Assembly: GCF_003334255.1 (NCBI RefSeq)
Contig: NZ_QOWU01000041.1
Direction: 5' to 3' (one strand)
Length of the DNA: 25,350 nt
Source: Escherichia coli
Lineage (GTDB): Bacteria > Pseudomonadota > Gammaproteobacteria > Enterobacterales > Enterobacteriaceae
In this document: positions 1-3,000 of the stretch, piece by piece
Layout of the letters: the number at the start of each line of letters is the position of its first letter
How positions within the stretch are numbered: the first letter of the stretch is position 1
Program-made: the position numbers

Positions 1-3000
1 AACAGGCAAATTATCAACGACCCTAACGCTTATCTGGAATATGACAATTATGATGCCATTGAAGTGCCTAAAACCAACGGCATTCCGTCAGATTATGATG
101 GCGTAATGGGTGTACCGATTAGTTTTTTGGATAAATATTGCCCTGAACAGTTTGAAATTATTTGTATGGATTTTGAAATGGAAGGTTTACATCAGAATTT
201 AATTAAATCAGACTGGAATGATAAATTTGACAGGGGATATTTAAAAGGTAAACGCATGCACTCAAGAATATTCATCAAACACATAAAACCACAAAATAAA
301 TAAAAAGGAAAACTAAAAAATGCAAACTCAATTAGATACATCAATCACCATTGAACAATTGTGCGATGGCTTTGTTTATAATGAACTGGAGGGAAAAGGC
401 TTGTTTGGTTTATCAGGAAAGCTTACCATTCAGCCCGAATATCAACGCAATTATATTTATGCAGACGGTAAGAAAGATGTGGCGGTTATCCAGTCTGTAT
501 TAAAAGGCTATCCGCTCGGTTTGATTTATTTTAATCAACCTGACAAAGATACAGAAGATACATTTGAAGTACTGGATGGTCAGCAGCGCATTACCAGTAT
601 TGGGCGGTTTGTTACTGGAAAATTCGCCATTATAGATGATAAAGGTACGCCATACTATTTCCATAGTTTACCGCAAGACCAACAAGAGAAAATCAAACAA
701 ACCACTTTGCTGATTTACAAATGTAAAGGTACAGAAAGCGAAATTAAAGAATGGTTTAAAACGATTAATATTTCTGGCGTCCCTTTAAATGAACAGGAAT
801 TATTGAATGCGGTGTATTCGGGCAAATTTGTTACACAGGCAAAAGCAGAATTCAGTAATTCTGCCAATTCAAATGTACAAAAATGGAGCGCTTACATCAA
901 AGGTAATGTTAAACGCCAGGAGATTTTAGAATGTGCGTTAGACTGGGTCAGTAAAGGCAATATCAGCGAATACATGAATGCCCATCGTAATGATGACAAT
1001 ATCAAGGAATTAAAAACCTATTTCAATAGCGTGATTGATTGGGTTAACACCACATTTACCGAGATAAAAAAAGAAATGTGCGGTCTGGAATGGGGGCGTT
1101 TATACGAAACCTATAAAGACAAACCATACAATCCAGGTGAATTAACCACGCAAATCAATCAATTATATCAGGATGATAGTGTAAAAAACATTAAAGGCAT
1201 TTGGGAATACGTGTTAGGTGGTCAATCTGATAAACGTTTATTAAACGTTCGCTTTTTTGATGAAAAAATCAAAAAACAAGCCTACAAAAGACAAACAGAT
1301 AAAGCGGCGCAACAAGGCATATCAAACAGTCCTCTTTGTGCCAGTGCAGATAATGCCAATAAAACCAAAATCTGGGCTTTTAAAGAAATGGAAGCCGACC
1401 ATGTTTCCGCATGGAGTAAAGGGGGTGAAAGTACGCTTGATAATTGCGAAATGCTTTGCATTACACATAATCGTTCAAAAGGGAATAAATAACCTGGTTA
1501 AATTAATTAAGGCGGTAAATACCGCCTTTCAAAAGGCAAATAAACGTTTAAAATATCAGCTATAAAACACACCCAAAAATTTCACCAGACAACTCCATCC
1601 AGACGTTTGGTGAACTGGCACAGACTATCAGCATCAGCCCACAGGATTTTAATCTGTCCCCCTGTCGACAAGGAAAGATAAACAGGTGACCGGAGAAAGG
1701 GGGCTCATTCAGCACATGCTATATCTGTTCCAGATCATTGAAGGATTTACGCATATCGGTAACACCGGCAACCAGCCAGATACGAGTGCCAGATGGGACT
1801 GAGATCATTGCCCTTCCCGGTCAATTCCCTAAGATGTATTTTCAGAACGGTGAGAGATAAATTCCCCACCATGCGCAGACTGGCACTACCAACAATTACA
1901 TCACAGATCATCCCCTCACTGTAAGACGAGGAGCGTATTGAGATTCTGTCTGATATATCTTCTAAATAACTGATCCTAATATCGCTACACTTTAGCCAGC
2001 CCATGTTTCCCACCGGGGAATGGGCTAACGGTATCCATAAAGTGACGAACCTTTTTCAACAGTTGCCACATTGAACGGCACTGGTGATTTCGGGTTATTG
2101 TCTGATGAAGCGCCTGCCACAATCGTTCCACATGATTGACCCACGATGAGTAAACCGGCTGATAAATGACCCTGAACTTCGGGTTTGCTTTCAGCCAGCG
2201 CAACGTTTCACGGCTTTTGTGGATGATGTAGTTATCGACAATGAGCGTAACTATTTAGTAATCAGTGCTCAGCCACTTAACCAGGCTTTTGGTACATCAA
2301 TTTGTATTCCTGTCACGAGCGCTGACGCATTTTCTCGCTCAAAAGGCGTGACTGTGGTTATTGATGGGGGAAGTACCGATACAGGAAAAATTACCGGAGT
2401 TGCTCTGCCATTTGCAATCAGGTCACTGGACCTGAATGCCCTGGGAGCTACGTATGCAGCAAAAGTCGAAACACGCGTGCTTGATGAAGTGACTTCGTTA
2501 CTGATTGATATAATCGATCCACAATAAAAATAAGCTAAAATAGCTGGCATGAACACGATTTACGTTTCTTATCGTCTCTCTGCCGCTTCTTTCTTCCATT
2601 GAACATTTATCATACAGCACGTATGATATCACTGTGATAACGACCTGCTCATGGGAGCTGCGCTATGAAAAACGAAGCAGAAAAAGCGATGTGGAATTGC
2701 AAAACCTCGGATACACCATGGACCTTCAGTTCCCTGCTGAAAAAGGCCGTCTGCGCAGTTTTGCCTGATGCAGAACTGAAGATTGAGAATGCCACAAAAG
2801 GATGTTCTGTTTTATCGACTGTAGATAATGACCTTGGCAATAAATCATTAAATTACGACCCTTTTTCTTTTGAATCTGCTTTACATCTTGATATAGAAAA
2901 TCTTCCCCTTATAGAAAATTGGGATGGAGAACCTTACAAGCTCCCCTAAAAATATGGCGATATCCATCACAAATATCGCCATAAATATTAACAATTATTT

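Follow-up and report, generated by a model that had tools for sequence, protein, structure and literature searches.

Insertion sequence remnants and a truncated toxin gene in a cargo slot of an integrative and conjugative element of Escherichia coli

Positions 1566-2660 of a 25,350-nt stretch of the Escherichia coli contig NZ_QOWU01000041.1 (assembly GCF_003334255.1; the whole stretch that was analysed is called the window) hold gene fragments at the edge of a conjugation module, and raise the question of where these fragments came from and how they came to be joined. An earlier note on this DNA had described a truncated copy of an IS630-family insertion sequence (IS), abutted by two open reading frames (ORFs), 1747-1900 and 2219-2527, of no recognisable family. 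Both are present as ORFs, but both proved recognisable. The region is, very probably, inert wreckage consisting of an IS66-family remnant, an IS630-family terminus seated on C-TA, and a truncated toxin gene fused to that terminus, left by an insertion and then a single deletion. It lies in the cargo slot of an integrative and conjugative element (ICE) in a Shiga-toxin E. coli chromosome. The features are as follows.

1583-1808, minus strand: IS66-family tnpB pseudogene, codons 1 to ~75 of ~115 (profile match, DNA identity, RefSeq)
1809-1925, minus strand: 3′ remnant of IS66-family tnpA, roughly the last 39 of 135 codons (tblastn, DNA homology)
1926-1961: 36 bp matching neither IS, between the IS66 remnant and the IS630 target
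1962-1964: C-TA, the left half of the CTAG target; TA is the dinucleotide duplicated by IS630-family elements
1965-2250, minus strand: right-end remnant of an ISSpu2-like IS630-family element, 286 of 1152 bp (DNA identity, inverted repeat, profile)
2250-2251: deletion junction, joining an internal IS630 position to the second base of toxin codon 32
2251-2527, plus strand: 3′ three-quarters of a Kid/PemK/MazF-type toxin gene, residues 33-123 of 123
2219-2527, plus strand: chimeric ORF of 102 aa, annotated in RefSeq as 'type II TA system PemK/MazF family toxin' (WP_000342954.1; ORF list, RefSeq, junction mapping)

The IS630-family terminus and its fusion to a toxin gene

The minus-strand ORF at 1985-2203 matched the extreme C-terminus of the NCBIfam IS630 transposase profile (positions 242-298 of 299, E 4.5e-16). 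This is the similarity on which the earlier note had staked its truncated IS630 copy, and that identification is upheld. Its estimate of about 72 remaining codons was too low: the frame stays open 5′ of the TTG to 2250-2254, so that 87-88 of 343 codons (1985-2250) are left, together with an intact terminus. The 89-aa translation matched profile positions 225-298 of 299 (E 3.4e-23); it scored 82.6 bits, where the cut-off is 100. Over 1957-2250 the DNA was 98.3% identical to a complete element that encodes a 343-aa transposase on an E. coli plasmid (locus L004; comparison loci carry the prefix L). The remnant translation reads IVTLIVDNYIIHKS...NHVERLW; of the DDE catalytic triad, it retains the second Asp, in LIVDNY, and the Glu, in NHVERLW. 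RefSeq annotates a transposase pseudogene at 1985-2251.

The ends of the element were defined from four intact copies (L004 and L011-L013) in unrelated contexts, namely an E. coli plasmid, a Klebsiella mcr-2.3 plasmid, a Pantoea plasmid and an E. coli chromosome, which gave a core of 1152 bp. The left flank read C-TA-AATAACTG... in all four copies, and the right flank ...CAGTTATT-TA-G in three (L011-L013); the right flank of L004 did not conform, having CG after CAGTTATTT. The inverted repeats in L004 are 21 nt long. In the window, the terminal inverted repeat, which the earlier note had proposed seeking near 1940-1985, was found intact at 1965 to ~1981 (1961/1965-1981), directly flanked by C-TA. 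A passage in PMC2170065, citing Tenzen and Ohtsubo (1991), gives TA within CTAG as the preferred target of IS630.

Strain SCU-171 also has the HNH gene and, at 95% identity, the IS66 remnant; next comes ...TATATCGT-CTAG-ACAAAC..., with the CTAG unoccupied exactly where the window has C-TA and the IS end. The unoccupied site was also seen in four more fetched loci, representing 24 contigs read. The second TA of the duplication is lost with the deletion. No second IS630 inverted repeat was found, either in the region or in the whole window, and a repeat search of 1400-3050 returned short repeats at chance level only.

The name ISSpu2 was taken from RefSeq labels on 95%-identical copies. These elements belong to the Tc1/mariner/IS630 superfamily and occur on plasmids and chromosomes of Enterobacterales. 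Over the 286-294 bp that remain, identity to intact copies is 95-98%, and the terminal inverted repeat, the C-TA half-site and the transposase C-terminus with its second Asp and Glu are shared with them. The remnant differs in that 25% of the element is left. Having lost one end, the N-terminal helix-turn-helix domains and the first catalytic Asp, it is capable neither of transposition nor of mobilisation in trans.

Alignment to intact IS630 copies, which the earlier note had recommended for mapping the breakpoint, placed it at 2250/2251, inside the IS and joined to toxin codon 32; this is a plain deletion, not an IS end. Homology to the IS ends at 2250 and homology to the toxin gene starts at 2250-2252. 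Three-way comparison of the L004 element, the window and the intact SCU-171 toxin gene revealed a microhomology of 1 nt at the junction.

Downstream of the junction lies a 5′-truncated toxin gene of the PemK/MazF/Kid type. The ORF 2219-2527 matched the MazF and ChpB models of NCBIfam, with equivalog scores far under the cut-off (46.5 vs 150), and the Pfam PemK_toxin model (PF02452), an SH3-like barrel. The latter match spanned model positions 20-108 of 109, as against 1-108 for the intact SCU-171 protein, and the domain in the window copy is thus not full-length. Toxin DNA was 98.1% identical to the intact SCU-171 gene over 2250-2772. In a tblastn search with a 121-aa Pantoea toxin, residues 31-121 aligned to window 2252-2524 with 62% amino acid identity. 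Missing from the window are the first 31-32 toxin codons and, upstream of them, the mazE-type antitoxin gene, which in both SCU-171 and Pantoea is present, adjacent to the toxin gene and overlapping it. A search of the whole 25-kb window found no antitoxin (MazE, ChpS, PemI or Pantoea type), no toxin N-terminus and no further parts of IS630 or IS66.

The leader of the chimeric ORF, a GTG start and the first 11 codons (MDDVVIDNERN), is antisense sequence of the IS630 transposase remnant. Judged by homology, the annotated 102-aa toxin is a chimera, a pseudogene without the N-terminal 32 toxin residues. Its intact SCU-171 homologue has Kid of plasmid R1 as the closest solved structure (PDB 1M1F, E 1.4e-13) and aligns with it end to end. 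The nearest described toxins are Kid/PemK (plasmid R1 parD) and MazF, sequence-specific endoribonucleases that are paired with AbrB/MazE-type antitoxins. The window copy differs from these in having lost the 32 residues and the antitoxin, and in beginning with 11 foreign residues. The missing Pfam model positions 1-19 correspond to Kid residues 1-24, that is strand β1 and the β1-β2 loop. In PemK, Kid and MazF the β1-β2 loop is essential for RNA binding, for antitoxin binding and for the dimer gate or interface (PMC8887465).

No sigma-70-like promoter was found on the plus strand between 1472 and 2598, a terminator-like hairpin lies just 5′ of the chimeric ORF at 2171-2183, and no Shine-Dalgarno-like sequence was evident before the GTG on direct reading. 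None of the three remnants would be expected to function: the IS630 piece because its DNA-binding domain, first Asp and second end are missing; the IS66 piece because it lacks tnpC and both ends; and the toxin ORF because β1 and the β1-β2 loop are missing and no promoter or ribosome-binding site is detectable.

The IS66-family remnant and the adjoining 36 bp

The ORF at 1747-1900 overlaps remnants of IS66-family tnpA and tnpB, recognised by tblastn, profile match and DNA identity. The tnpB pseudogene, annotated in RefSeq at 1597-1808, is interrupted by an in-frame TAG (1719-1721), shifts frame near 1645 and is truncated at its 3′ end. Read on the minus strand from 1808 to ~1583, it gives MISVPSGTRIWLVAGVTDMRKSFNDLEQI, the stop, HVLNEPPFSGHLFIF... 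and, past the frameshift, ...ILWADADSLCQFTKRLDGVVW. The repaired 75-aa translation scored 61 bits against the NCBIfam IS66_TnpB model (cut-off 50, E 7.9e-17, profile 1-63 of 90), and the DNA was 88% identical to an IS66 copy (L006) over ~1593/1598-1827. For tnpA, window 1810-1917 aligned by tblastn at 66.7% identity with residues 99-134 of the 135-aa IS66 TnpA of Klebsiella and Enterobacter plasmids; this identification came from the plasmid comparison only, the 50-residue translation in the tnpA frame having no NCBIfam match. The tnpA stop codon has been removed by a 1-nt deletion, seen as a gap in the alignment with L006, and the region of the tnpA/tnpB ATGA overlap is retained.

The fragment therefore comprises the 3′ end of tnpA and the 5′ two-thirds of tnpB in canonical order. 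The whole-window search found neither tnpC nor other IS66 parts, and both ends of the element, with the terminal inverted repeats and 8-bp target duplication typical of the family, fall outside the retained DNA. It resembles IS66 elements, such as the E. coli plasmid copies beside subAB, in gene order, in the ATGA overlap, in tnpB DNA identity (88%) and in a TnpB score above the curated cut-off. It differs from them in lacking tnpC (the DDE transposase), both ends, ~95 tnpA codons and ~40 tnpB codons, and in the stop and frameshift within tnpB.

Homology to IS66 DNA (compared with L009) extends to 1925 and ends there in the window and SCU-171 alike. The following 36 bp, 1926-1961, which SCU-171 and related contigs conserve, showed no homology to IS66, nor to IS630 copies from independent contexts. 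The possibility that the IS630 insertion had cut the IS66 remnant was considered and rejected, as in SCU-171, just as in the window, ~36 bp separate the end of IS66 homology from the CTAG.

Comparison loci, proposed history and alternatives

In SCU-171, ~16.7 kb separate the CTAG from the position of the toxin junction. This interval holds a gene for a 121-aa protein (no PHROGs match), dgkA, a phosphoethanolamine transferase gene, degraded urease genes, genes for an S6 family peptidase and a YadA C-terminal-domain protein, hypothetical genes and mazE. The last encodes an 89-aa MazE-type antitoxin upstream of, and overlapping, a full-length 123-aa toxin gene (98-99% DNA identity to the window), which lies beside the same small gene for a 94-aa protein and traG. 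On the Klebsiella plasmid p90CM2-MCR-253k (L011 1525-3290), the 95%-identical intact IS630 copy lies directly upstream of mcr-2.3; the SCU-171 cargo beside the CTAG likewise has a phosphoethanolamine transferase gene and dgkA.

Other genomes carry the slot in other forms. Strain 2013C-3033 lacks window 1720-2273, with IS66 tnpB′ joined directly to a shorter toxin remnant (75 aa). In at least 13 other E. coli genomes, including S19-651, the slot is filled by Hok/Gef and an L31 paralog, and homology to the window resumes at 2470, within the last ~58 nt of the toxin gene. This relic suggests that a toxin-antitoxin pair was once present there too. The 95-aa 'L31' (rpmE) coding sequence of S19-651 (L007 2758-3061) has an annotated 5′ end that overlaps the relic in antisense, and its start may be over-extended. 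At least four states of the slot, those of SCU-171, the window, 2013C-3033 and the S19-651 type, were thus represented among the comparison loci, which fits the cargo hotspot shaped by insertions and deletions that the earlier note had envisaged.

The simplest history of the window, and a likely one, is as follows. An SCU-171-like ancestor would have carried, in order, the HNH gene, the IS66 remnant, CTAG, ~16.7 kb of cargo, mazE, the kid-like toxin gene, the 94-aa gene and traG. An IS630-family element would then have inserted, by cut-and-paste transposition, into the TA of that CTAG. Finally, one illegitimate deletion with 1 nt of microhomology would have run from IS position 286 to toxin codon 32, taking the inner 866 bp of the IS, all of the cargo, mazE and 94 nt from the start of the toxin gene.

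IS and toxin sequences abut without a spacer, as they would had the IS630 element inserted directly into the toxin gene, with 2250/2251 as the transposition junction, and subsequently shed its remainder on the other side; insertion of ISs into toxin-antitoxin genes is common. However, in alignments to the four intact copies 2250 falls within the transposase gene, at position 286 of 1152. Neither an inverted repeat nor TA or CTAG is found at 2250/2251. The true terminus, with its C-TA, is instead at 1962-1981, next to the IS66 remnant, and it is there that SCU-171-like loci have the unoccupied CTAG. Direct insertion therefore seems extremely unlikely. It is also highly improbable that the 102-aa chimera has been kept because it is useful, working in shortened form and without an antitoxin as, for instance, an attenuated toxin or a dominant-negative subunit. 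Its ORF is open, with a GTG start and a RefSeq toxin label, and its exact sequence occurs on at least 1000 public contigs (~115 for the intact toxin and >130 for the 75-aa form). The leader by chance also supplies an Arg two residues before the retained Tyr, which we take to align with Arg29 of E. coli MazF. Against this, the protein is without β1 and the β1-β2 loop, no promoter-like site on the plus strand or Shine-Dalgarno-like sequence precedes it, the terminator-like hairpin stands upstream, and 2013C-3033 shortens the gene further, to 75 aa. That one identical sequence is so widespread fits a successful E. coli lineage in which the deleted state spread clonally, not selection.

A third alternative concerns 2013C-3033, whose bare deletion could be nested, that is, a secondary deletion from the state seen in the window. 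Its endpoints fall inside the IS66 and toxin remnants of the window, which makes such nesting geometrically possible. On both flanks, however, 2013C-3033 shares derived sites with SCU-171, leaving the window as the odd one out (14 vs 1 and 8 vs 2 informative sites), although recombination could blur this signal, and its CcdA, methyltransferase and ICE proteins are identical to those of SCU-171. A nested origin is accordingly considered rather unlikely, and from these site patterns the 2013C-3033 deletion was probably a second, independent event over the same interval.

Several points weigh against insertion followed by a single deletion as the origin of the window. A full IS630 copy beside SCU-171-type cargo would be marked by the junction CAGTTATT-TA-GACAAACAGTACC; an intermediate of this kind, with the full element at the CTAG and the cargo intact, was found neither among 5426 complete E. 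coli genomes nor in the 24 contigs that were read. How the events were ordered, and how large the deletion was, is therefore inferred. The ancestor of the window may have had different cargo, and the 'empty' CTAG of SCU-171 may itself be a relic of an older IS630-family insertion. That the chimeric toxin ORF would be non-functional is predicted from homology and structural knowledge.

In SCU-171, 33 nt to the right of the CTAG resemble the IS630 terminus, with 21 of 33 matches at a 1-nt offset (L003 4560-4600, the same as L010 19600-19643; equivalent to the window junction at 1962). This score was unmatched among ~28,600 control positions, the sole match at that level being the same SCU-171 site, present twice. 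A search for a parent element returned SCU-171 alone from complete E. coli genomes and nothing from plasmids. The 33 nt are possibly a relic of an older, diverged IS630-family end. It is conceivable, if distinctly unlikely, that this relic guided the IS630 element to the adjacent CTAG, that is, that transposase binding to DNA resembling its inverted repeat steers target choice. Such end-targeting has been described for IS30; to our knowledge, it has not been described for IS630/Tc1-mariner elements.

On the general biology of toxin-antitoxin systems, loss of the antitoxin would be survivable only if the toxin were disabled too, which may explain why the deletion ends within the toxin gene. Both deletions, that of the window and that of 2013C-3033, end inside this gene, as fits such a constraint.

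Genomic setting and significance

The window is near-identical to a collinear locus in E. coli STEC2018-553 (NZ_CP075665.1), with 3 scattered mismatches and a divergent last ~75 bases; at 25276-25350 most positions differ, reflecting an indel or a divergent segment. Both STEC2018-553 and strain 2015C-3121 match the window at 100% identity from 1400 to 3000. Going by RefSeq annotation alone, the STEC2018-553 locus is an ICE of the mating-pair-formation G (MPF-G) type, with TIGR03745-03759 family genes, traD and a gene for a conjugative transfer ATPase. A minus-strand gene from window position 2995 onward, encoding a protein with the TraG N-terminal domain, completes the gene set of such elements (TIGR037xx genes with traG, traD and the conjugative ATPase). 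The remnant region lies between the left-hand cargo and the conserved 94-aa gene with traG, so that decayed accessory DNA does adjoin the conjugation module, as the earlier note had supposed.

The left-hand cargo, as annotated in RefSeq, comprises CcdAB, an EcoRI-like adenine methyltransferase and a GmrSD_N/HNH protein. The gene for the last (GmrSD_N, DUF262, with HNH; 320-1492), beside the methyltransferase gene, is intact in the window. In 2015C-3121 it is interrupted by IS1A (L001 2144-4093), and IS activity is thus still ongoing in the cargo region. Farther into the window, at 7888-9978 (L008 12888-14978), a gene for the siderophore receptor/adhesin Iha with an internal stop lies within the conjugation gene cluster, with the TIGR03757 gene on one side and the conjugative ATPase operon on the other.

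On the right, the 94-aa protein (2665-2949) had no family match in NCBIfam or PHROGs. About 40 bp upstream of its gene, at 2609-2627, is a perfect 7-nt palindrome, ATCATAC-AGCAC-GTATGAT, which overlaps promoter-like hexamers on both strands and, from its position, is a possible candidate operator for an ICE backbone gene. A scan for promoters and terminators gave counts at chance level and nothing 5′ of the chimeric ORF 2219-2527, and an Rfam scan of 1300-3100 (E <= 1) found no RNA family.

RefSeq already annotates all of the pieces, as a tnpB pseudogene, a transposase pseudogene and a toxin family member. To this the present analysis adds the correction of the 'toxin' to a beheaded chimera, the reconstruction of the deletion, and the sequence resembling an inverted repeat in SCU-171. 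The biological weight is small, the region being textbook IS debris and a deletion in the cargo slot of a conjugative element. Surveys of toxin-antitoxin genes will nonetheless count the chimera, which is named as an intact PemK/MazF toxin on at least 1000 public E. coli contigs, as an orphan toxin. Set beside SCU-171 and 2013C-3033, the window exemplifies a known constraint, namely that deletions which remove an antitoxin also cut into its toxin.

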